In this document: in pieces, positions 11,789 to 61,818 of the stretch | How positions within the stretch are numbered: position 1 is the first letter of the stretch | Layout: each line of letters opens with the position of its first letter | Assembly: GCA_036556025.1 (NCBI GenBank) | Contig: DATBKD010000046.1 | Coordinates: forward strand, 4,718-68,717 | Direction: 5' to 3' | Source: Gemmatimonadales bacterium | GTDB taxonomy: Bacteria; Gemmatimonadota; Gemmatimonadetes; Gemmatimonadales; GWC2-71-9 | Length of the DNA: 64,000 bases | The notes under the pieces: generated by a model | What the model saw: the letters and a program-made list of their open reading frames with translations, nothing else | Database searches by the model: none | Told to the model about the DNA's origin: nothing | Translations under genes and position numbers: made by a program

Positions 11789-12748
11789 GTGCCCTACCGT
11801 GAGGCCGATCTCAGCCGGCTGCGCACGATCCCCGTTTCGGGACGTCGCAACAAGGTCGACAGCTCGCTCCTAGCCACTCCTCCGACAGCGGCTGGGTCAT
11901 TCACCGACTTCCTGGGTAGCCTGCCCGACGTGCTGGCGGCGCGAGATCTTCGCGCCGTCATCGCCGGCGTCGCAGCGGCCGCGAGCAACCGGAGAGGAGT
12001 ACTGTTGCTGCTCGGCGGCCACGTCATCAAGGTCGGTCTCGGCCCGCTGGTCAACGCCTGGATCGAACGGGGGCTGGTCTCGCACATCGCCCTCAACGGG
12101 GCTGCGGCGATTCACGATTTCGAGCTGGCTGCCTTCGGGGGTACCAGCGAAGACGTCGAGAGCGGGCTGGCCGATGGGAGCTTTGGCATGGCGGACGAGA
12201 CCGGGACCGAGATGAACGCCGCGATTAGTGCCGCGGCCGCGAGCGGTCAGGGCATGGGCGAGGGCTTAGCCCGGGGCCTCGCGGCCCGCCCTACCCTCCC
12301 CGGGGCCTCGGCCTCGGTGCTGCTGAGCGCGCTGAATCACGATGTTCCGGTCACGGTCCACGCCGCCATCGGCGCGGACATCATTCACCAGCATCCCAAG
12401 GCCGACGGCGTGTCCCTGGGAAGCACGGGTCATCGGGATTTCAGGCGCCTGGCAGGCTCACTGGTGGATCTCGATCAGGGCGGGGCCGTGCTCAACTGGG
12501 GCAGTGCGGTAGTCCTGCCCGAGGTGTTTCTCAAGGCGTTGACCATCGCCCGCAATCTCAACGCGGGCCGGCCTACTCACTTTCTCGCGGCGGATTTTGA
12601 CATGCAGCGGCATTACCGGCCGCGCCTCAATGTGGTGCAGCGACCAACCCGCGCCGGCGGCAGTGGCTACCTGCTCACCGGACATCATGAGATCATGATT
12701 CCGCTGTTGGTGTGGGGAGTGGTTGAAAGGCTATCGGCTATCAGCTAA
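11789..12748 (+). CDS. Deoxyhypusine-synthase-like (DS fold) family protein, function unknown
   Basis: GTG start 2 nt after the upstream stop. GGHVIKVGLGPLVNAWIERGLVSHIALNGAAAIHD and VPVTVHAAIGADIIH resemble the NAD-binding segments of deoxyhypusine synthase-like proteins (by eye only). The last codons lie inside a heptamer repeat. Confidence 0.55.
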   Translation: MPYREADLSRLRTIPVSGRRNKVDSSLLATPPTAAGSFTDFLGSLPDVLAARDLRAVIAGVAAAASNRRGVLLLLGGHVIKVGLGPLVNAWIERGLVSHIALNGAAAIHDFELAAFGGTSEDVESGLADGSFGMADETGTEMNAAISAAAASGQGMGEGLARGLAARPTLPGASASVLLSALNHDVPVTVHAAIGADIIHQHPKADGVSLGSTGHRDFRRLAGSLVDLDQGGAVLNWGSAVVLPEVFLKALTIARNLNAGRPTHFLAADFDMQRHYRPRLNVVQRPTRAGGSGYLLTGHHEIMIPLLVWGVVERLSAIS

Positions 12749-12811
12749 GAGCGATCGGTCCTGGGAGATCGAGCCCGCCGCCCAGAATTGTTAGCTGATA
12801 GCTGATAGCTG
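12729..12811. repeat. Inverted heptamer arrays (GGCTATC/AGCTAAG arm versus AGCTGAT arm)
   Basis: Left arm: ggctatc ggctatc agctaag (12729-12749, includes the stop codon). Right arm: ttagctgatagctgatagctg (12791-12811). The arms are reverse complements with 1-2 mismatches, and the loop is about 41 nt. Confidence 0.7.
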
Positions 12812-14220: not shown

Positions 14221-14337
14221 CGAACATCCCGAACACAGAGTCGCCGACTACCGGCATCCAGAGGCAGTAGAGCAGTAGAACGACCTGCACACTCTGAACA
14301 CCGATAGCCGGCGACGAAATCGCCCTACGCGGCGGCG

Positions 14338-14384
14338 CTGACAGTTATCAGCTGACAGCTGACAGCTTACTTCTTACTTCTGGT
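14338..14384. repeat. Tandem heptamers (GACAGCT-type x4, then TACTTCT x2)
   Basis: Read directly: gacagtt atcagct gacagct gacagct tacttct tacttct. The CAGCTG core relates it to the AGCTGWT family. Confidence 0.7.
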
Positions 14385-26325: not shown

Positions 26326-27279
26326 GTGGCAGTTCCGTTGGTACAGCTGACCCGTTCGGATCATTCGAAGAGCCTCGATCCGCCGATCGCCGTTCCGCTC
26401 GCGCCGGCCCGGAAGCCCAGCTGGCTCAAGGTGAAGGCGCCCGGCGGATCGAACTACGTGCAGCTCAGGGGCCTGATGCGCGAGCTCGGGCTGCACACGG
26501 TCTGCGAAGAAGCCCACTGCCCCAACATCGGTGAATGCTGGGAGCACCGCGCCGCGACGTTCATGATCCTGGGTGACGTCTGCACCCGCAACTGCACTTA
26601 TTGCGCGGTGGCCCACGGGACGCCCCAGCGGTTCGACCCGCTCGAGCCGGTGCGGCTGGCGGAGGCCGTCGCGCGCATGAGCCTCGAGCACGTGGTGATC
26701 ACGTCGGTCGATCGCGACGACCTCCCCAACGGCGGAGCCGAAGCATTCGCCGGCTGCGTCCGGGAAATCCGGCGCCGGCTCCCGGGCACCTCGGTCGAGG
26801 TGCTCATTCCGGATTTCAAGGGCTCGGAGGAGGCCCTGCAGCTGGTGATGGATGCCCGGCCCGACATTCTCAATCACAATCTTGAGACCACGGAGCGGCT
26901 CTACCGGATGGCGCGGCCGGGCGGGCGCTACGATCGTGCACTGCGGCTGCTGGCCAGTGCCCGGGAGATGGTGCCCGAGGGACTCACCAAGTCGGGCATT
27001 ATCCTGGGCCTGGGGGAGGAGTGGGACGAGATCCTGCGGTGCATGCGTGACCTGCGTCGAAGCGACGTCAACATCCTCACTATCGGGCAATATCTGCGGC
27101 CGTCGAACAGCCATCTGCCGGTAGCTCGGTACTACACTCCCGATGAGTTTGCGGAGCTGCGCGCGATCGGGCTCAGCCTGGGATTCGACCACGTCGAGTC
27201 CAGTCCGCTGACCCGCTCGTCGTATCACGCCTGGGATCAAGCGCGCGCAGCGCGGCCCGGGGGACCTTCCGCCCGATGA
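26326..27279 (+). CDS. lipA: Lipoyl synthase
   Basis: Both cluster motifs are present: CEEAHCPNIGECW and radical-SAM CTRNCTYC. C-terminal SSYHA-like end. Confidence 0.9.
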   Translation: MAVPLVQLTRSDHSKSLDPPIAVPLAPARKPSWLKVKAPGGSNYVQLRGLMRELGLHTVCEEAHCPNIGECWEHRAATFMILGDVCTRNCTYCAVAHGTPQRFDPLEPVRLAEAVARMSLEHVVITSVDRDDLPNGGAEAFAGCVREIRRRLPGTSVEVLIPDFKGSEEALQLVMDARPDILNHNLETTERLYRMARPGGRYDRALRLLASAREMVPEGLTKSGIILGLGEEWDEILRCMRDLRRSDVNILTIGQYLRPSNSHLPVARYYTPDEFAELRAIGLSLGFDHVESSPLTRSSYHAWDQARAARPGGPSAR

Positions 27280-28301
27280 CCGGCTCGACCGCGGCGCGCA
27301 CCCGGGCCAGGTCCCGGCGGCTCGATCCTGCCCAGGCCGACGAGTATCGCGGGTGGCTGCGGCAGATGATGCTCATCCGCCGCTTCGAGGAGAAGGCCGG
27401 CGAGGCGTACAGCCTGGGCAGGATCGGTGGGTTCTGTCACCTGTATATCGGGCAGGAGGCCGTCGCGGTCGGGAGCCTCGCCGCGCTGGGGCCGGATGAC
27501 TACATCACCTGCTCCTATCGCGAGCACGGGCATGCGCTGGCCCGGGGCATCTCGGCTCGGGCCGTCATGGCCGAGCTGTTCGGCAAGGCAGCCGGGTGCA
27601 CTGGAGGCAAGGGCGGATCGATGCACCTGTTCGACGCCTCCCTCGGCTTCCTCGGCGGCCACGGGATCGTGGGAGCCCACATTCCGCTCGCCACCGGCAT
27701 GGCCTTCGCCGCCAAGTACCGCAAGACCCAGCAAGTGGCGGTCTGCTACTTCGGTGAGGCGGCGGTGAACAACGGCGCCTTTCATGAGGCCCTCAACATG
27801 GCCGCGCTCTGGAAGCTGCCGGCCGTCTATATCTGCGAGAACAACCGCTACGGCATGGGGACCGCGCTCGAGCGGGCCAGCGCCATCTACGACATTTCCG
27901 AGCGGGCCTGTTCCTATGACATGGCGAACGAGGTCGTCGATGGCCAGGACGTGCTGGTCATGCATGCGGCCATGGAGCGAGCGGTCCAGCGGGCCCGGAC
28001 CGAGGAACAGCCGACCCTGCTCGAGGTGCGCACCTACCGGTTCATGGGTCACTCGATGTCCGATCCGATTCATGGCCATTATCGGACGCGGGAGGAAGTA
28101 GAGGACCAGCGCAAGCGCGACCCGATCACGGTCTGGTCGCAACGACTCATCGCCGAGGAGCTGATGGATGAGGCGGCCGTCAAGGCGATGGACAAGTCGG
28201 TCATGGAAGAAGTGGAAGATGCGTATCAGTTCGCGGACCAGGCACCCGAGCCTGAGGCCGAAGCCCTGTTCCAGGACGTGTATGCGGAGGAACAGCGGTA
28301 A
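27276..28301 (+). CDS. pdhA: Pyruvate dehydrogenase (acetyl-transferring) E1 alpha subunit
   Basis: ATGA overlap with lipA. GFCHLYIGQEA and the TPP-binding GxG...NN region (YFGEAAVNNGAFHEALNMAALWKLP..ENNRYGMGT). Confidence 0.9.
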   Translation: MTGSTAARTRARSRRLDPAQADEYRGWLRQMMLIRRFEEKAGEAYSLGRIGGFCHLYIGQEAVAVGSLAALGPDDYITCSYREHGHALARGISARAVMAELFGKAAGCTGGKGGSMHLFDASLGFLGGHGIVGAHIPLATGMAFAAKYRKTQQVAVCYFGEAAVNNGAFHEALNMAALWKLPAVYICENNRYGMGTALERASAIYDISERACSYDMANEVVDGQDVLVMHAAMERAVQRARTEEQPTLLEVRTYRFMGHSMSDPIHGHYRTREEVEDQRKRDPITVWSQRLIAEELMDEAAVKAMDKSVMEEVEDAYQFADQAPEPEAEALFQDVYAEEQR

Positions 28302-30766: not shown

Positions 30767-30838
30767 GCGTGAAGCGTAAAACGTGAAACGTGAACGCCGT
30801 GTCTCGCCGCTTCACGTTTCACGTTTCACTGTTCACGC
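30767..30838. repeat. Inverted heptamer arrays, 4 + 4 units (GCGTGAA/ACGTGAA versus TTCACGT), between pdhC and lpd
   Basis: gcgtgaa gcgtaaa acgtgaa acgtgaa, then a 16-nt loop, then ttcacgt ttcacgt ttcactg ttcacgc. Three of the four unit pairs are perfectly complementary. Confidence 0.8.
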
Positions 30839-30859
30839 TTTCCTTCAAGTGAGGTCTTC

Positions 30860-38929: not shown

Positions 38930-39574
38930 GTGTCCCAGAACAGTGGGCTGTCGAGGGTCAAGTTCGGCGTCGATGGGCTGGTGCCAGTGGTGGCTCAGGA
39001 GGTCCGGTCCGGAGACGTGCTGATGCTGGCCTTCGCCAACCGGGAAGCGCTCGAGCGCACGCTGTCGACCGGTCTGGCGCATTACTACAGCCGGTCGCGC
39101 GCCGCCCTGTGGCAAAAGGGAGAGACGTCCGGACACGTCCAGCGGGTCACGGAGGTCCGGCTGGACTGTGATCTGGACGCCGTGCTCTACCGGGTGGAAC
39201 AGACCGGACCCGCGTGCCACACCGGGGCCCGGACGTGTTTCTCCACGCCTGTAACCCGGGGGAATGGGAGGAGCACGGGGCAAGAGGATCCCGGGGGCCA
39301 CATCCTCACCCGGCTCGCGGCTACGATCGCGCGCCGGGCGAACCAACGTCCGGCCGACTCGTATACCGCGCAACTGCTCGACCGGGGCCTTCCCAAGATC
39401 TCGCAGAAGGTGGGCGAGGAGGCGATCGAGCTGGTGGTCGCCGCCAACGCGGAGACGGATGAGCGCCTCGCGTCCGAGGCCGCCGATCTCCTCTATCATC
39501 TGTTGGTCCTGCTGCAGGCTCGAGGGGTCCCGCTGGACGCGGTGTGGCGGGAGCTGGAAACACGAGAGAAGTAG
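38930..39574 (+). CDS. hisIE: Bifunctional phosphoribosyl-AMP cyclohydrolase / phosphoribosyl-ATP pyrophosphatase
   Basis: HisI part: GLVPVVAQE...YYSRSR..LW.KGETSGH...CDLDA..Y.V.Q.G.ACHTG. HisE part: YTAQLLDRG...KVGEEA.EL.VA...[12 protein letters not shown]. Confidence 0.9.
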
Positions 39575-39702
39575 CTAACAGCTAACAGCTAACAGCTATC
39601 AGCTAACAGCTACTCCTTGGGGGTCTTCACCGTCAGTTGGCCGAAGTCAGCCTGATAGCTGTTAGCTGTTAGCTGTTAGCTGTTAGCTGTTAGCTGTTAG
39701 CT
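39572..39702. repeat. Inverted heptamer arrays (AGCTAAC x6 versus AGCTGTT x6-7) forming a potential 35-40-bp stem
   Basis: Left arm 39573-39613: agctaac x3, agctatc, agctaac, agctac. It begins inside the hisIE TAG. A 39-nt spacer follows. Right arm 39653-39702: agctgtt x5, agctgat, agct. The arms are reverse complements except at the A/T variant position. Confidence 0.9.
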
Positions 39703-39741
39703 GATAGCTCTCAATCATATTGGACTTGCGAACACGCACCC

Positions 39742-48002: not shown

Positions 48003-48080
48003 ACCGTGAACGGTAAATGGTAAAAAGCAAACGGGGACTCGCTTTGAGTCCCCGTTTAGTGTTTACGGTTCACGGTTCAC
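48003..48080. repeat. Composite inverted repeat: heptamer arms (ACCGTGA/ACGGTAA versus TTTACGG/TTCACGG) around a perfect 12-bp hairpin
   Basis: Fills the 85-nt gap between the convergent M23 and lemA genes. Outer arms: accgtgaacggtaaa and tttacggttcacggt. Confidence 0.7.
48029..48057. terminator. Bidirectional intrinsic terminator
   Basis: AAACGGGGACTC-gcttt-GAGTCCCCGTTT. The minus-strand transcript continues into TTTGCTTTTTA and the plus-strand transcript into TTTAGTGTTTA. Confidence 0.7.
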
Positions 48081-48656: not shown

Positions 48657-49375
48657 TGCCGATCTCCCAGCTGAAGTTGATCCAGGAACCGCACCGCGCG
48701 CTCGACCGCGGCCATATACTCCTCGAACTCCACGACGCCACATCGCCACCCCCGTTTCCCCCGGTGCTGCACCACACGCGCGACCGACTCCCGACTCGCT
48801 CCGACGGCATCCTCCGCCACGTGTGCCAGCTCGACGGGTTCGGAGGACACCGGCTTGCCCAGCAACGCCAGCAGGGCGCGAAGCAAGACCATCACCGTCC
48901 CCGCGCTCTGGGTGGCGAGCGTGCCAAGCGCTGCCGGATCTGGGCTGGCAGCGGCATAACCCTGGCGAAGTCGTAGCAGCTTGCCCCGAAATTCCCGTTC
49001 CAGTGCTCGACGGAGATCGCTGGGAAGCACCGCCGCGCCCGTGAATGGATCGGTGCCTCGCAGCACTTGGTAAGCCGCTCTCATATCGGTGATCTCGATT
49101 GGGAACGCATCGGTGGCTCGCTCCCATTCCTCCCGGCTCATCACCAGGGGAGGCTCCAGCCGAGCTTTCCGCCATTGGGTCAGCGCCTGGCCCAGAGAGC
49201 GCAGGATGTCGGGGGTGGCGTCCTCCAGAATCAGCATGAGGTTGACATCGGAGTGGCCGGGAATGAAATCCCCCCGTGCCGCCGAGCCGTAGAGCACGGC
49301 ACTGTATCGGCCGTTCAACATGCGGTCGGCCTCTGCCAGTAAGGGCGTCACCACTCGGTCGACCGACTCGTGCAT
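48653..49375 (-). CDS. Pol-beta-superfamily nucleotidyltransferase domain protein with C-terminal helical domain
   Basis: Start at the ATG at 49375. LYGSAARGDFIPGHSDVNLMLIL (GS-x-RG, then the acidic beta-strand of minimal NTases). 240 aa. ATGA overlap with lemA and a 1-nt overlap with the upstream TPM gene. Confidence 0.7.
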   Translation of the reverse strand: MHESVDRVVTPLLAEADRMLNGRYSAVLYGSAARGDFIPGHSDVNLMLILEDATPDILRSLGQALTQWRKARLEPPLVMSREEWERATDAFPIEITDMRAAYQVLRGTDPFTGAAVLPSDLRRALEREFRGKLLRLRQGYAAASPDPAALGTLATQSAGTVMVLLRALLALLGKPVSSEPVELAHVAEDAVGASRESVARVVQHRGKRGWRCGVVEFEEYMAAVERAVRFLDQLQLGDRQ

Positions 49376-50202
49376 CAGAATCTCCCTCCGGCGCCGCCCC
49401 CGCTGAAGCCACCGCCACCGCCAAACCCGCCAAAGCCTCCGCCACCGCCAAATCCGCCACCGCCAAATCCGCCACCGCCACCGAAACCTCCGCCTCCGAT
49501 CCAAGGTCCACCCCAATATACCCGGCGCCGGCCGCGTCGCCCCTGACTCGCAAGTATGATGAACAGAATGAAGAGCAGAATGGGAAGGAAAGAGAGGGTC
49601 TGGGGCCGACGGCCGGATGCCACCGGCCTGGCATTGACCAAGGCCGAATCGGAAACGCCGTAGCCTCGTGCGATCAGACTGGAGAGTGCCTGCACACCGG
49701 TGAGCAGCGCAGGCCCGTAGGTTTCCTGAGAAAGCTCGGGACCCATGGCGTCCCGGATCCGTCCCGCCTCCACGTCGGTGACGATGCCCTCCAGCCCCCG
49801 TCCCACCTCGACCCGAAGATGTCCGCTGCCCGGTTGATGATTTTGCCGTGGCACCAGCAGCAGGACGATCCCAGCATTGCGCTTGGGATCTCCCACTTCG
49901 GCCTTCGCGCCTACGCCCCACTTGCGTCCGATCGCCAGCGCGACCTCGGCCTCGCTCTGATCGTCGATCGTAGGGAGGGTCACGACCGCGATCTCCGCAC
50001 TGGTCGCCGCCTGGAGCCGCCGGATCAGACTCTCCATCTGGGAGACCGAGGTCTCGTCCAGCACCCCCGCTGCGTCGGTCACGTATCCGGTCGGCTGTGC
50101 CGGAAAGAGCCGATCGACCTCGGGATTCTGCGCTCGTACGAGAGCGGCGCTCAGTTGAAGCGCCGCGAGGAGGACGGTAGCTTTGGCTCGTGTCCCGCTC
50201 AA
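49375..50202 (-). CDS. TPM domain-containing protein (YgcG-like) with TM segment and Gly/Phe-rich tail
   Basis: Signal peptide. YVTDAAGVL...LE..T..EIAVVT...G and GLEG..TD TPM motifs. TM segment (LSFLPILLFILFIILA), then GGGGFGGGGGFGGGGF. TTG start is uncertain. Confidence 0.8.
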   Translation of the reverse strand: MSGTRAKATVLLAALQLSAALVRAQNPEVDRLFPAQPTGYVTDAAGVLDETSVSQMESLIRRLQAATSAEIAVVTLPTIDDQSEAEVALAIGRKWGVGAKAEVGDPKRNAGIVLLLVPRQNHQPGSGHLRVEVGRGLEGIVTDVEAGRIRDAMGPELSQETYGPALLTGVQALSSLIARGYGVSDSALVNARPVASGRRPQTLSFLPILLFILFIILASQGRRGRRRVYWGGPWIGGGGFGGGGGFGGGGFGGGGGFGGFGGGGGFSGGGAGGRF

Positions 50203-50954
50203 TCGCTCTCCTGGTAGTGGCCGCGGCCCTGGCCGGTCCCGGCCTCGTCGCCTGCGAGCGCGCGCGCGACGTGGCCGTCAGAGTTTCGATCCCCGGCCCC
50301 GACTCGGTCGAGACGCCGGTCACGGGCATCGGTCTGGTGGCGCTACCCTACGATCGCGACAGCGTGCTGGCCGCGCTGGAGGCCAGGGCACATACGCGGC
50401 GCCCGGGAACGGCGGAGCTGGACAGCCTGTTCCAGGCCTTTCGCGCCCCTTTCAATAGCTACGCATCGGCCACTTACCGGTCGGGGAAGCTGCGCGATTC
50501 CCTGGCCGAGGTGAAATCGCGACTCGATTCCCTTCCCCGCAATGCCCCCGAGTACAGCCAGCTCTATGCGGTCTTCGGCCGACTCTCTGACTCGGTGACC
50601 GTGGCACAGACGCGGACGGAACACGCCCGAGCGGAGCTGGACCGAGCTCGCACCGGCTTCGTGGCGCGCAGCGAAAGTCTCCGCGCCGCGATTCGGCATT
50701 GGGAAGATAGCACCTACCAGGGGTACGACAGCATCGTGAGCCGACTGGCCCGCTCACGCGGTCGGGAGGCGTCCACCGATACAACGGGGCCGGATGGCTG
50801 GGCCCATCTTCACCTCCGTTCGGGCCGATGGTGGATCTACGCGCGCTCGTGGGATGCAACTGACCCGAACGCAGAGTGGTATTGGAACGTGCCGGTGAGT
50901 GGGGACACGGTCCTGCTCTCGAGTCGCACCGGCAAGCGGCGGCCGCGGTACTGA
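50190..50954 (+). CDS. Lipoprotein of unknown function
   Basis: GTG start. Signal peptide with lipobox GLVAC-E. 254 aa, helical middle part. Its start overlaps the divergent TPM start by 13 nt. Confidence 0.55.
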   Translation: MSRSIALLVVAAALAGPGLVACERARDVAVRVSIPGPDSVETPVTGIGLVALPYDRDSVLAALEARAHTRRPGTAELDSLFQAFRAPFNSYASATYRSGKLRDSLAEVKSRLDSLPRNAPEYSQLYAVFGRLSDSVTVAQTRTEHARAELDRARTGFVARSESLRAAIRHWEDSTYQGYDSIVSRLARSRGREASTDTTGPDGWAHLHLRSGRWWIYARSWDATDPNAEWYWNVPVSGDTVLLSSRTGKRRPRY

Positions 50955-50956
50955 GA

Positions 50957-50979
50957 GGGCGGTCAGGGCGGTCAGGGCA
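50957..50979. repeat. GGGCGGTCA nonamer x2.5
   Basis: gggcggtca gggcggtca gggca, starting 2 nt after the stop codon at 50952-50954. Same unit as the array at 51643. Confidence 0.7.
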
Positions 50980-51003: not shown

Positions 51004-51642
51004 ATGCGAGGGATGCCAAGCAAGCAAACCATCTGCCGTGTTTTCTTCCCTGCCGTCCTCACCGCCCTCACCGCCATCAGCCCCTTGTCGGCGCAAACGC
51101 CTGACGCTCTCGCCAGTCGGACCAAAGGCTCGCCCGGAGCCCCGATCACGGTCTATGAGATGTCCGACTTCCAGTGCCCGTATTGCCGTCAGTTTGCGCT
51201 GGAAACCTTCCCCGCCCTGGAGCGGGCCTACGTCGCGACCGGGAAGGTTCGCTGGATCTTCGTCAATTTTCCCCTGACCAGTGTCCATCCCAACGCAGTC
51301 GCCGCGGCCGAGGCAGCGCTGTGCGCGGGTAAGCAGGGTGCCTTCTGGGCTGTGCATGACCTGCTCTACCGGCACCAGGAGACCTGGGCACCGCTCAAGG
51401 AGCCGGGACCCTTCCTGCTCTCGCTGGCCGATTCCGCCGGGATCTCCAAGCCGGGACTGCTTGCCTGCGTGCAGGCGCCGCGGACCCAAGGCGAGGTTCG
51501 AGCCGATGCCGAGGGAGCCGAGCGCTCAGGGGCAGGCAGCACGCCGACGTTCTACATCGAAGGGGGATTGCTGGTGGGCGCGCAGCCCCTGGAGGTGTTC
51601 CAGCAGGTGCTCGATTCCATTTACGCGGTAAAGCGACACTGA
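51004..51642 (+). CDS. DsbA-family thiol:disulfide oxidoreductase (exported)
   Basis: Signal peptide. EMSDFQCPYCRQF active site (CPYC). C-terminal GTPTFYIEG motif. Confidence 0.8.
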   Translation: MRGMPSKQTICRVFFPAVLTALTAISPLSAQTPDALASRTKGSPGAPITVYEMSDFQCPYCRQFALETFPALERAYVATGKVRWIFVNFPLTSVHPNAVAAAEAALCAGKQGAFWAVHDLLYRHQETWAPLKEPGPFLLSLADSAGISKPGLLACVQAPRTQGEVRADAEGAERSGAGSTPTFYIEGGLLVGAQPLEVFQQVLDSIYAVKRH

Positions 51643-51737
51643 GGGCGGTCAGGGCGGTCAGGGCGGTCAGGGCGGTCAGGGCGGTAAGGGCGGTAAGGGC
51701 GGTAAGGGCGGTAAGGGCGGTAAGGGCGGTAAGGTAA
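51643..51737. repeat. Tandem nonamer array: 4 x GGGCGGTCA + 6 x GGGCGGTAA (+ partial unit)
   Basis: Counted base by base. Starts on the first nucleotide after the dsbA-like stop codon. Confidence 0.95.
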
Positions 51738-51742
51738 CTGAT

Positions 51743-51910
51743 AGCTGTTGGCTGATAGCTGTTAGCTGTTAGCTGATAGCTGATAGCTGATAGCTGATAG
51801 CTGTTAGCTGTTAGCTGTTAGCTGATAGCTGTTAGCTGATAGCTGATAGCTGTTAGCTGATAGCTGATAGCTGTTAGCTGATAGCTGTTAGCTGATAGCT
51901 GTTAGCTGCT
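51743..51910. repeat. Tandem heptamer array: 24 x AGCTGWT
   Basis: Counted base by base: 168 nt with AGCTGAT and AGCTGTT units interspersed, one GGCTGAT and a terminal AGCTGCT. The last 9 nt lie inside the CPBP coding sequence. Confidence 0.95.
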
Positions 51911-52648
51911 TCCCGTCAGGGTCAAAATCACATCATACAATGCGTGGGTCCACGCCGTGATACCGAAGCCGCGCAGCAGGTAGAGCGCGCTGAAGAGCAC
52001 GCCCGCAATCGTGCGAAAGGTGAACGAGGCCAGGACCAAACGATCACCGTACGGCCCGACGTAGTGGAAGGCGGAGAAGATCAGAGCGCCGATGACGGTC
52101 GCCGCGATCCCGGCTGCGGCAGCGCTCCAGCCGAGGGCCCGGCGGCCGAGCCAGGCAAGCGATCCCACCACCAGCACCCGGAAGAGCAGCTCCTCGTAGA
52201 TCCCAGCCCCGAGCGAGATCATCAGCCGCGACGGCAGCGCCAGGATCGGAGCGTCCTGGAGCGCGAGGTGCGATGCCGAGGCGGCGAGCCCCCGCAGAAG
52301 CAGCCCAGTCAGAGTGCCCGCGACCAGGCCGAATACCATGGCGTACAGCATCGATTCCGCCGCCATCAGCGGAAAAAAGCGAAACTCGATCCTGCCATTC
52401 CTGCGCCGGTCTCGCCAGACCAGCGCCAACGCCGTGCCGACGATCACGATCCCGAACACGACCAGGCCATCTCGTCCTCCGAAGGCAACGAAGAGGCTCT
52501 TGAGCAGCACATCGGCGCCGTTGCGCACGCCGGCGAGTGAATCGTGGCTCAGCAGCAAGGCGAGCAGCTCGTACGCCAGGAGCAGAGGGAAGGCGAAGGT
52601 GAGGCTGTAGCGCGGGGCTCGGCTCGCGCGCCAGTAGCCGGACATCAT
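51902..52648 (-). CDS. CPBP family intramembrane glutamic endopeptidase (CAAX protease/Abi family)
   Basis: Multi-TM, 248 aa. Motifs IYEELLFRVLVVG (EExxxR) and SAFHY (FxxxH). Confidence 0.8.
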   Translation of the reverse strand: MMSGYWRASRAPRYSLTFAFPLLLAYELLALLLSHDSLAGVRNGADVLLKSLFVAFGGRDGLVVFGIVIVGTALALVWRDRRRNGRIEFRFFPLMAAESMLYAMVFGLVAGTLTGLLLRGLAASASHLALQDAPILALPSRLMISLGAGIYEELLFRVLVVGSLAWLGRRALGWSAAAAGIAATVIGALIFSAFHYVGPYGDRLVLASFTFRTIAGVLFSALYLLRGFGITAWTHALYDVILTLTGSS

Positions 52649-60847: not shown

Positions 60848-60876
60848 CTATTTGGTCTCTGGGCGGCAGAGGCGGT

Positions 60877-60921
60877 CCTTACCGTCTTTACCGCCCTTCC
60901 CGTCTTTACCGTCCTTACCGT
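60877..60921. repeat. Five tandem nonamers (minus-strand reading ACGGTAAGG ACGGTAAAG ACGGGAAGG GCGGTAAAG ACGGTAAGG) between atpG and atpD
   Basis: Counted directly. The array abuts the atpG stop codon (60923-60925). The unit is a rotation/variant of GGGCGGTAA at 51679-51732, in the opposite orientation. Confidence 0.8.
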
Positions 60922-60922
60922 C

Positions 60923-61818
60923 CTAGCCTTGCAACGCTGCGGCGCCGCCCACGATCTCCGAGATCTCCTGGGTAATGCCGGCCTGACGTTGCCGGTTGTA
61001 GGTGCGCTTGAGCACCTCCAGAATCTCCCCCGCGTTGTCGGTGGCATTCTTCATCGCGGTCCGCCGAGCCCCATGTTCGCCGGCCGCGGTTTCGACCAGA
61101 CCGCGGTAGACCGCGTTCCTGATATAGAGCGGCAGCAGTTGCTCGAGGATCGCGGTGGCGTCGGGCGCGAGGATGTAGTCGTGCGACCGTCCAGTCTTGC
61201 CTTCTCCCGATTTCGTGGCCGGCGGCTCGATGGGCAGGATCTGCACCGTAGCCGGAGGTGTCTGGAGAGCGCTGATGAATCGTGCCTGCACCAGGTCCAC
61301 GCTGGCCAGCGCGCCTTGGGCGAATGCCTCGATCAGCGACTCCGCGATTTCGGCGGCGTGGTCCGCGGTGGGCTTGTCGCCGATGTCGATCCGCTCCAGC
61401 GCCAGCTTCCGACCGAGGTACTTGAAGAACCCTACGCCCTTTTTTCCGACCGCGTATAGGTCCACGGTGTAACCCTCGGCCTCCCGCGCCTCGATCCGTC
61501 GCCGGGCTTCCTTGATCAGATTCGAGTTGAAGGCACCGGCGAGCCCACGATTCGAGGTCAACAGGATGACCGCGGCTCGCTTGGGGCCGCCGTGCGAGAT
61601 GTCCGGGGGACGCCGAAGCAGCGGAAACGTCTGGGTCAGCTCGGGCGTCACCAGATCTGCGATCACCTCCCGCAGAGCTTCGGCGTAGGGCCGTGCCGCG
61701 ATGACCCGATCCTGCGCCCGCTTGAGCTTGGAGGTGGAAACCAGCTCCATGGTGCGGGTGATCTTGCGGGTGTTCTGGACGGAGCGAATCCGTCCTTTGA
61801 GCTGCCGACCCTTGGCCA

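Follow-up and report, generated by a model that had tools for sequence, protein, structure and literature searches.

Two adjoining tandem-repeat arrays in the gap between convergent DsbA-like and CPBP genes of a Gemmatimonadales genome

A 268-bp repeat block and its flanking genes

The DNA considered here is a window of 64,000 nucleotides (64 kb), the whole stretch that was analysed, from a Gemmatimonadales contig (DATBKD010000046.1). A base-for-base check showed that a 268-bp block of simple repeats (51643-51910) makes up the whole gap between a gene for a DsbA-like thiol-disulfide oxidoreductase and a convergent gene for a CPBP-type protease. Very probably, the block consists of two adjoining long arrays of simple sequence repeats (SSRs), driven by slippage and belonging to the intergenic heptamer class that resembles the short tandemly repeated repetitive (STRR) sequences. 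It is a hypervariable two-part array, one of many in this genome, located in a dispensable gap between two 3' ends. The locus is organized as follows, all positions being those of the window.

51004-51642, plus strand: gene for the DsbA-like thiol-disulfide oxidoreductase (Pfam Thioredoxin_4, 1e-28; DSBA, 3.5e-12)
51643-51732, plus strand: nonamer array, 4 x GGGCGGTCA followed by 6 x GGGCGGTAA
51733-51742, plus strand: junction GGTAACTGAT, half a nonamer plus a degenerate heptamer
51743-51910, plus strand: heptamer array, 24 units AGCTGTT (T) or AGCTGAT (D), including one GGCTGAT and a last unit AGCTGCT
51902-52648, minus strand: gene for the CPBP/Rce1-like intramembrane protease (Pfam Rce1-like, 1.4e-9), convergent with the DsbA-like gene

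The DsbA-like gene ends with a TGA stop at 51640-51642 and the first nonamer begins on the very next base. Public gene calls begin this open reading frame (ORF) at its second ATG (51013), which gives a 209-aa product. On the other side, the last 9 nt of the array contribute the end of the CPBP gene, agc agc taa on the minus strand (51910-51902), that is Ser-Ser-stop. The heptamers succeed one another in the order T,(GGCTGAT),T,T,D,D,D,D,T,T,T,D,T,D,D,T,D,D,T,D,T,D,T,(AGCTGCT). An initial annotation of this DNA had described ten nonamers, a 10-nt junction and 24 heptamers with this unit order, starting directly after the DsbA-like stop codon and supplying the CPBP Ser-Ser-stop codons, and every element of this anatomy proved exact. 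It had also held that the order of D and T units is not periodic; indeed, no autocorrelation was found at lags 1 to 8. Tandem Repeats Finder (TRF) describes the nonamer part as period 9 with 10.3 copies and 98% matches, and the heptamer part as period 7 with 24.4 copies and 89% matches. The nonamer array is G-rich on the DsbA sense strand, and a single TAACTGA lies inside the junction (51736-51742). The dimers of both units are far more frequent in the window than expected (37 observed against 0.03 for the heptamer, 16 against 0.40 for the nonamer).

Several identities were tried and rejected. As the initial annotation had already concluded, the block is not a CRISPR array: its units are 7 and 9 nt long and follow each other without spacers, as against CRISPR repeats of 23-50 nt with unique spacers. 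It does not encode a peptide, whether on its own or by read-through, as the plus strand carries TAG and TGA in all three frames and the T-units give TAA in all three minus-strand frames. Phase variation of the CPBP gene was also discarded: the array lies 3' of both ORFs and the CPBP stop codon falls in the gene-proximal unit, so that internal changes in copy number cannot shift the frame. No promoter-like site was found in the gap, and no Rfam match at the gathering threshold in the whole window or in the loci of three relatives. Within the DsbA-like gene itself, the signal-peptide coding region (51053-51079, LTALTAIS) contains three copies of CCGCCCTCA, whose reverse complement differs from the intergenic nonamer by one base (TGAGGGCGG versus TCAGGGCGG). 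This small repeat could be a coincidence, or an array captured into coding sequence.

Alleles of the block and the orthologous gap in relatives

The block was recovered from metagenomes independently of the window. The CPBP protein has exact matches on three contigs (L001-L003) and the 209-aa DsbA product on seven (including L205-L210), and these contigs end in or just beyond the block. No exact protein match was found for the 212-aa version of DsbA or for the 254-aa upstream protein, because public gene calls use other starts. Contig L002 matches the irregular D/T order over 16 units, from the CPBP side, while in L206 and L207, from the DsbA side, the nonamers are followed by the identical junction and by 12-17 heptamers in matching order. 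Altogether, the two-part architecture was recovered in at least five independent assemblies, from five samples. The initial annotation had raised the question of an assembly artefact, in which the repeat would have been collapsed or expanded and would not be real in the form given. Such an explanation could invoke the fact that short-read contigs break within the array, and that the junctions or flanks of L001 and L207 are absent from the window, but it is largely refuted by the reproduction of the architecture and of the unit order in these contigs, and we consider it hardly credible.

The same contigs show that the block varies in length. The nonamer part reads C4A6 in the window (four units of the first type, six of the second), C4A7 in L207, CC(ggcggtca)C-A4 in L206 and C2A4 in L205. 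These alleles differ by whole units inside the C-block and the A-block, L206 having in addition one 8-nt unit. This agrees with the suggestion of the initial annotation that the blockwise switch from C to A reflects local expansion. In the heptamer part, the run of D units counts four members in the window as against three in L206, six internal heptamers are lacking in L207, and L205 has the junction GGGAACTGAT and a different heptamer start. In L001 there are only eight heptamers and a different junction, next to a flank of 6.3 kb that is 99.92% identical to the window. The alleles thus differ although the DsbA or CPBP proteins are 100% identical among contigs. A mini-array located upstream of the DsbA-like gene, at 50956, also varies, with three full copies in L208 and two elsewhere. 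Two peculiar sequences were noticed in these contigs: in L207 (1745-1787) the array exits into a foreign flank, agctgccccgccgccaagcgcgg, and in L001 (6348-6367) there is a junction, agctactctaccgccc; neither is found elsewhere in the window. They are due either to mis-assembly at repeats or to real rearrangement between arrays.

The ATP synthase beta subunit encoded in the window is 86-91% identical to its best matches in the protein collection. The named AtpD matches at 86-88% identity come from metagenome-assembled genomes (MAGs) of Gemmatimonadales or Gemmatimonadota, except one labelled Bacillota. Through AtpD homologues, two Gemmatimonadales contigs of 1.8 and 2.15 Mb (L202 and L203, respectively) were found, on which the gene order around the locus is kept. 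Orthologous gaps were then collected by a metagenome scan with the DsbA protein, which yielded 80 loci at 60-87% identity. The convergent CPBP gene is kept in 55 of them. The gaps of these 55 loci span -12 to 899 nt, with a median of about 30 nt, and no more than 8 contain a tandem repeat of 2.5 copies or more. As several contigs stop inside such arrays, the long ones are under-sampled. In L123, the closest relative (87% aa identity), the gap holds GGCGGTAGGGC and about four GTTAGCT units, which likewise form the CPBP stop codon. In L122 (83%), an inverted AGGCTAT/TAGCCTA pair is found at this place. The arrays in the gaps of other relatives are built of GGCGGTCG (x9.9), nonamers of the TTCCCGTCC type, GAGGTGA or AGGCCGAT; L204 has arrays of 8- and 9-mers. 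On the L202 contig, the orthologous gap contains an unrelated array, GGGAAAC x16.7, facing CCATTTC x3.3, and in L203 it is 60 nt long and contains two ordinary stem-loops. The sequence of the array thus appears to be kept only across very short evolutionary distances.

The difference between L202 and L203 extends beyond this gap. When syntenic loci of 21 kb are compared, 8 of 11 gaps contain arrays in L202 as against 1 of 9 in L203. This contrast suggests that a genome-wide determinant, such as repair or replication genes, governs the accumulation of repeats. The presence of arrays is therefore a property of the lineage, and the gap considered here a tolerant site. The initial annotation had proposed that the block would be a neutral microsatellite if its units were not enriched outside the locus and if the orthologous gaps did not conserve the array type. 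The first part of the answer is that the units are enriched outside the locus; the second is that the array type persists in no relative but the nearest, the others lacking it or having something else in its place. Complete neutrality is the main rival of the functional interpretation given below. According to it, the arrays originate by slippage and have no function; they are tolerated 3' of stop codons, and not in promoters, ribosome-binding sites or coding DNA, and their hairpin potential is incidental. The failure of the array type to persist beyond the nearest relative argues for this, as does the wholesale difference in array load between species, which is expected of a genome-wide mutational property.

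Two other elements were observed at the orthologous position. In about ten relatives (L124, L125, L141, L145, L149-L151, L169, L171 and L200), the gap is filled by an inverted repeat, GTCATCCYGAGCG...CGCTCRGGATGAC, that resembles the repetitive extragenic palindromic (REP) sequences. This repeat is absent from the window, where two weak matches were found for 0.94 expected. In L136-L138, L140, L142, L155, L174, L194 and L198, a conserved element stands in place of the CPBP gene downstream of DsbA. It consists of an A-tract and a GGGGCCGC...GCGGCCCC hairpin, followed by ...CTCTGTAGACAATGGATCACCTCCTCGG, and contains GGATCACCTCCT, which is identical to the motif of the 3' tail of 16S rRNA. The element has no Rfam match at the gathering threshold in the two loci scanned (L137 and L142).

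Stop codons, strand polarity and predicted folding

The units of the block are not confined to it. The window contains the following further arrays; inverted pairs, in which two arms face each other, are given without strand.

50956-50978, plus strand: mini-array of the main nonamer unit, GGGCGGTCA x2.6, 2 nt past the stop codon of the gene 50190-50954
39573-39709: inverted pair of the main heptamer, AGCTAAC x5.7 / CTGTTAG x8.3, arms 39573-39612 and 39652-39709, 39-nt spacer
12729-12811: inverted pair GGCTATC x2.7 / TAGCTGA x2.9, arms 12729-12747 and 12792-12811, in a convergent gap
14337-14367, plus strand: GCTGACA x4.4, differing by one base from the heptamer family, between co-directional genes
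60875-60924, minus strand: nonamer array GGTAAGGAC / GGTAAAGAC / GGGAAGGGC, beginning within the stop codon of the gene that precedes atpD
30768-30842: inverted pair of a second heptamer family, CGTGAAA x3.9 / TTCACGT x4.4, 3 nt past a stop codon
28296-28324, plus strand: CGGTAAA x4.1, overlapping the stop codon of the gene 27276-28301

Their recurrence in at least five other gaps of the window had been missed in the initial annotation. Counted in the 64 kb, AGCTGWT units occur in five gaps, GGGCGGT-type units in three and CGTGAAA units in three, the last being found also at 29-44 and 48061-48080. On a crude gene map, arrays are present in 9 of the 27 window gaps of at least 40 nt; these nine comprise 3 of the 5 convergent and 6 of the 19 co-directional gaps, and none of the 3 divergent ones. 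In eight of these nine, the array lies at most 6 nt from a stop codon and several times forms the stop itself. Thus, the array at 39573, upstream of a dnaE-like gene, opens inside the TAG stop of the gene 38930-39574, and the first arm of the pair at 12729-12811 provides the TAA stop of the upstream ORF; the sole exception is the array at 14337-14367, 117 nt from the upstream stop. By synteny with L202, the gene that precedes atpD encodes the ATP synthase gamma subunit. The array at its end (60875-60924) is G-rich in sense, and the orthologous gap contains GGTAAGC x4.3 / CCGCTTA x3.7 in L202 and GAACGTGGG x4.9 in L204. Mobile elements of the MITE (miniature inverted-repeat transposable element) or REP type were considered for the inverted pairs and rejected, the spacers at 12749-12791 and 39613-39651 being unrelated to each other and no Rfam family matching. 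A coding repeat was also observed in the window: at 49399-49498, an in-frame repeat of 6/15/27 nt encodes the Gly-rich tail (GGGGFGGGG...) at the C-terminus of a TPM-domain protein (49375-50202, minus strand), and relatives have similar period-6/9 repeats at the corresponding place.

The association with stop codons was examined across the clade in a pooled set of about 380 kb, made up of the window and loci L122-L204, by considering non-coding arrays of 5-12-nt units located at most 15 nt from a gene end. In this set, 45 arrays were found at stop codons as against a single one at a start codon, the ends available being 408 and 384, respectively. Furthermore, G exceeds C on the sense strand of the adjacent gene in 36 of 43 stop-proximal arrays (binomial p = 9e-6), and the arms of inverted pairs located in convergent gaps are each G-rich when read along their own gene. 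Faulty calling of ORFs as the source of this polarity was checked and is not supported: arrays within called ORFs are mostly coding repeats of period 6, 9 or 12, and G-richness in sense is seen as well in those close to called stops. Just inside called starts there are some ten arrays, mostly the C-rich distal arms of inverted pairs. The 45:1 ratio is thus somewhat inflated and the direction of the bias robust. Proximity to stop codons and G-richness of the sense strand point to an explanation at the RNA level or one coupled to transcription.

The core of the heptamer, AGCT, is a palindrome, and two G·U pairs allow UAGCUG to pair with itself in RNA. In consequence of this, the RNA of the block read in the DsbA sense is predicted to fold into a near-continuous long hairpin (-159.7 kcal/mol, z -11.4). 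The initial annotation had concluded from the single orientation of the units that no simple hairpin could form, a conclusion that is wrong for the RNA of the DsbA sense. Read in the CPBP sense, the RNA folds no better than shuffled sequences (z -1.3) and its centroid structure is almost unpaired. DNA parameters give the same asymmetry between strands (z -5.0 for the plus strand versus -0.95 for the minus strand), which could favour slipped hairpins on one strand during replication. The inverted pairs elsewhere in the window also fold strongly: that at 39573-39709 as one long RNA hairpin (-91.5 kcal/mol, z -10.9), that at 30768-30842 with z -6.2 and that at 12729-12811 with z -3.8 and -3.1. 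In the array-poor L203, plain hairpins occupy the corresponding 3' gaps. An arrangement combining both kinds of structure was observed in L202 (19549-19688), between the genes for LemA and a peptidase M23: its core is a canonical hairpin, rich in GC and with a U-tract, enclosed by an outer stem of GGAATCG x4.6 and GATTCCC x4.1 arrays (folding energies -92.6 and -99.1 kcal/mol; z -9.4 and -10.8). It has the appearance of a bidirectional terminator.

The properties of the minus strand suggest another possibility, namely that the block is a Rho-loading tract, similar to a Rho utilization (rut) site, which ends CPBP transcription before it enters the DsbA-like gene in antisense. Indeed, the 268 nt of the minus strand are C-rich and G-poor, with a C/G ratio of at least 2 in every unit (two C and one G in AACAGCT and ATCAGCT, five C and one G in TTACCGCCC), and the corresponding RNA is essentially unstructured. 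However, the arrays that adjoin stop codons in the clade are usually G-rich in sense, which is the opposite of a rut site, so that this one would be a one-off, and relatives manage without the gap. We therefore regard Rho loading as quite improbable.

The nonamer tract comprises ten G3 tracts with 6-nt loops and satisfies the G-quadruplex (G4) motif (at least four tracts of three or more G, loops of 1-7 nt). It holds two of the only three plus-strand motifs of this kind in the window. Nevertheless, when nonamer RNA is folded by ViennaRNA with quadruplex energies, a weak stem-loop is preferred (-30.4 kcal/mol), and a quadruplex is not selected as the predicted ground state. This bears on a further explanation, in which the block is a multivalent platform, either a series of iterated sites for a DNA- or RNA-binding protein (a nucleoid protein, a regulator, or a protein of the S1/Csp/CsrA type) or a string of quadruplex-forming nonamers. 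The re-use of units at many loci and the fit of the nonamers to G3N6 x10 are in its favour, and analogous proposals exist for TAACTGA repeats (PMC4679880), as does evidence of G4 formation in vitro for GGGAATC (PMC4692102). Against this, the units are species-specific and undergo complete turnover between close relatives, which is hard to square with a conserved binder, and the energy model picks no G4. Such a platform seems to us a very distant prospect.

Known repeat classes and a possible role at gene 3' ends

Repeats of this general type have been described in several bacteria. In Xanthomonas, GGGAATC arrays are found at 186 loci with 2-26 units, about 90% of them intergenic; they lie near the neighbouring 5' ORF (28 nt on average), vary extensively in length and sequence among close relatives and form G4 in vitro (PMC4692102, Rehm et al. 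2015). According to the same authors, the G-rich strand of these repeats and of the Nostoc GGGGAYT repeats tends to lie downstream on the coding strand, and both are depleted between divergent genes. The arrays of the window are alike in being intergenic, close to the 5' ORF, G-rich on the coding strand, depleted in divergent gaps, variable and in part arranged as inverted pairs, and Xanthomonas is likewise a GC-rich non-cyanobacterium. They differ by their units and by the phylum of their host, and by the presence of 9- and 7-nt units side by side. Unlike GGGAATC, the heptamer of the window is quasi-palindromic and not capable of forming G4, and only the nonamer tract fits the G4 motif.

The cyanobacterial STRRs are 7-bp repeats that can form hairpins and possibly stabilize transcripts (PMC2670836). 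The initial annotation named them as the closest analogue, and aptly so with respect to the heptamer part, which consists of tandem, intergenic, dispersed and hairpin-capable 7-bp units. In addition, AGCTGWT arrays occur in Moorena, Trichodesmium and other cyanobacteria. The differences are that the host is here a member of the Gemmatimonadales and that the block also holds a 9-nt array.

TAACTGA arrays have been reported from Beggiatoaceae, Cyanobacteria and Bacteroidetes, with up to 43 copies and mixed with other heptamers, and in the Beggiatoaceae genome they are found in forward orientation a few nucleotides upstream of start codons (PMC4679880, MacGregor 2015). Table 3 of that paper gives TAGCTGA as not repeated in that genome, and (TAGCTGA)6 as a predicted stem-loop where (TAACTGA)6 is unstructured. 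TAACTGA is one base off the TAGCTGA of the window; the units of the block are TAGCTGA/TAGCTGT, TAACTGA itself being present only once. The two kinds of repeat have in common that they are direct repeats of heptamers, with stops in the three forward frames, that they are scattered over phyla and that draft contigs end in them. They differ by their location, which is start-proximal in Beggiatoaceae, whereas here only 1 of 46 end-proximal arrays is at a start codon.

More generally, the long simple sequence repeats (LSSRs) of prokaryotes, in the survey of Mrazek (2007) as summarized in PMC4679880 and PMC4692102, have units of 5-11 nt with heptamers the commonest, are lineage-specific, and were proposed to arise by slippage. 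Heptamer SSRs are over-represented in many bacteria including Burkholderia, Xanthomonas and Actinobacteria, as cited in PMC4679880. Units that are a multiple of three are tolerated in coding DNA in that survey, as far as these papers report it, and this is also the case for the period 6/9/12 arrays inside ORFs here. In so far as the survey is related in these papers, Gemmatimonadota are not among the genomes discussed, and none of the papers listed by our literature search on intergenic or heptamer tandem repeats names Gemmatimonadetes. The statement in the initial annotation that it knew of no such arrays in GC-rich genomes outside the cyanobacteria does not hold: those of Xanthomonas (PMC4692102) and, according to the summary in PMC4679880, of Burkholderia and Actinobacteria, are of this kind. 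The block has the characters of the LSSR and Xanthomonas-type repeats, with a tandem unit of 5-11 nt, a non-coding and dispersed location, variability, nearness to stop codons and G-richness in sense. It is a further example of a published class of bacterial intergenic repeats and not a novel type of element.

The unit itself is widespread. More than 118 stretches of (AGCTGWT)4 were found in diverse phyla including Gemmatimonadota, Acidobacteriota, Bacteroidota, Cyanobacteria, Desulfobacterota and Chloroflexota and in Vibrio/Pseudoalteromonas. This distribution was not taken to mean horizontal transfer or shared function, as scrambled heptamers form arrays too: in the viral-contig collection, arrays of at least four units number 28 stretches for AGCTGWT versus 6, 18 and 3 for composition-matched scrambles. 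There are only about 1,200 distinct heptamer classes, so that recurrence is expected, and AGCTGWT is at most mildly favoured. The formation of arrays by scrambled units in unrelated sequences also speaks for neutrality. In the 8-kb loci selected for AGCTGWT (L004-L121), 362 period-7 arrays were observed in 858 kb, more than 200 of which use other units (ACTCCCT, ACTCCCG, AACAGGG, AATCGGG and others). A genome that contains one heptamer family usually contains more than two, clustered within a few kb.

Structures that follow directly on stop codons and form stable RNA hairpins are familiar from intrinsic terminators and from REP-type 3' hairpins, and the arrays share both traits with them. In contrast to intrinsic terminators, there is here no U-tract or match to the consensus, and the stem, which consists of tandem units and includes G·U pairs, is specific to one strand and of extreme and variable length.

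These observations can be assembled into the following scheme. In a Gemmatimonadales lineage whose 3' gaps are in general colonized by arrays of 7-9-nt units, slipped-strand mispairing at replication very probably adds and removes units, and point mutations in single units are then amplified locally, giving the C-block and A-block of the nonamers and the mixed D/T heptamers; blockwise nonamer variants and allele differences by whole units fit such growth and shrinkage. The arrays have come to occupy all of a dispensable gap between the ends of two convergent genes, and to extend slightly beyond it. They would be transcribed as a 3' untranslated region (UTR), with G-rich RNA directly past the DsbA stop, followed by (AGCUGWU)24, which could pair with itself through its AGCU core and G·U pairs into a very long hairpin, taking the place of the short hairpins or inverted array pairs found at this position in relatives. 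Such a non-canonical 3'-end structure might pause or terminate RNA polymerase, or block 3' exonucleases, and so insulate the convergent genes. In the CPBP direction the RNA would be C-rich and unstructured, which would make the element polar. This 3'-end role would be weak and dispensable, leaving copy number free to drift. As a whole, this explanation (slippage-made arrays in 3'UTRs, possibly acting as 3'-end hairpins) is one to which we give an even chance; taken by itself, the RNA 3'-end role is put forward tentatively, at somewhat less than even odds.

A number of facts weigh against it. In about 20 of the 55 syntenic relatives, the gap measures less than 20 nt or the genes overlap, which indicates that nothing in this gap is required; that the gap is dispensable and often absent in relatives agrees with neutrality. 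Read in the sense of CPBP, the gene nearest to it, the heptamer array is rich in C, contrary to the polarity of the clade, and the clade statistics rest on our own, crude gene caller. Among 1000 shuffles of the unit order, the mean energy was the same as that of the actual array (-117.6 versus -117.6 +/- 3.1 kcal/mol, p = 0.43). Foldability is thus a property of the unit and no evidence of selection on this array, the absence of any sign of selection for pairing being again in line with neutrality; a hidden dyad symmetry in the D/T order, in which D would face T so that the variable base pairs, was discarded on the same ground. No U-tract or T-run follows the plus-strand hairpin and a scan of the gap for consensus terminators was empty; an intrinsic terminator of the canonical type is therefore rejected, in spite of the hairpin. 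Finally, the alleles come from short-read assemblies and part of their variation may result from mis-joining. Contigs L001 and L207, which come from the same sample, are mutually inconsistent and cannot both describe one molecule.

Neutrality alone, for its part, leaves unexplained the G-richness of the sense strand in 36 of the 43 stop-proximal arrays, the frequency of inverted pairs that make hairpins where an array-poor relative has ordinary ones, and the fact that a single genome employs the same small set of units in many of its gaps. We see it as a serious contender that nevertheless falls short of an even chance. A bolder extension of the 3'-end scheme can also be formulated. In array-rich Gemmatimonadales, hairpins at gene 3' ends would be built of 7-9-nt units and resized by slippage, copy number would tune read-through, and unit families would spread between gaps by copying. 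The 268-bp block would then be an extreme, single-orientation case, self-complementary via G·U pairs in one transcript only. We consider this extension unlikely. If it were true, it would amount to a polar, G-rich-first system of evolvable terminators or 3' stabilizers for neighbouring or convergent genes.

Arrays of this kind break short-read MAG assemblies, which matters for the reading of contig ends in Gemmatimonadota. The locus adds this soil phylum, outside the discussion in the repeat literature that we found, to the bacteria in which such repeats occur. It also offers an unusually clean natural experiment: depending on the genome, one and the same pair of convergent genes is separated by no gap at all, by a plain hairpin, by an array of 4 units or by one of 34, to which the copy-number alleles visible in one population can be added. 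Why some lineages fill their intergenic DNA with 7-9-nt repeats is a question that has stood since the STRRs were described; the comparative series at one locus, together with the 3'-end location and strand polarity of the arrays, makes their role testable in a new phylum.

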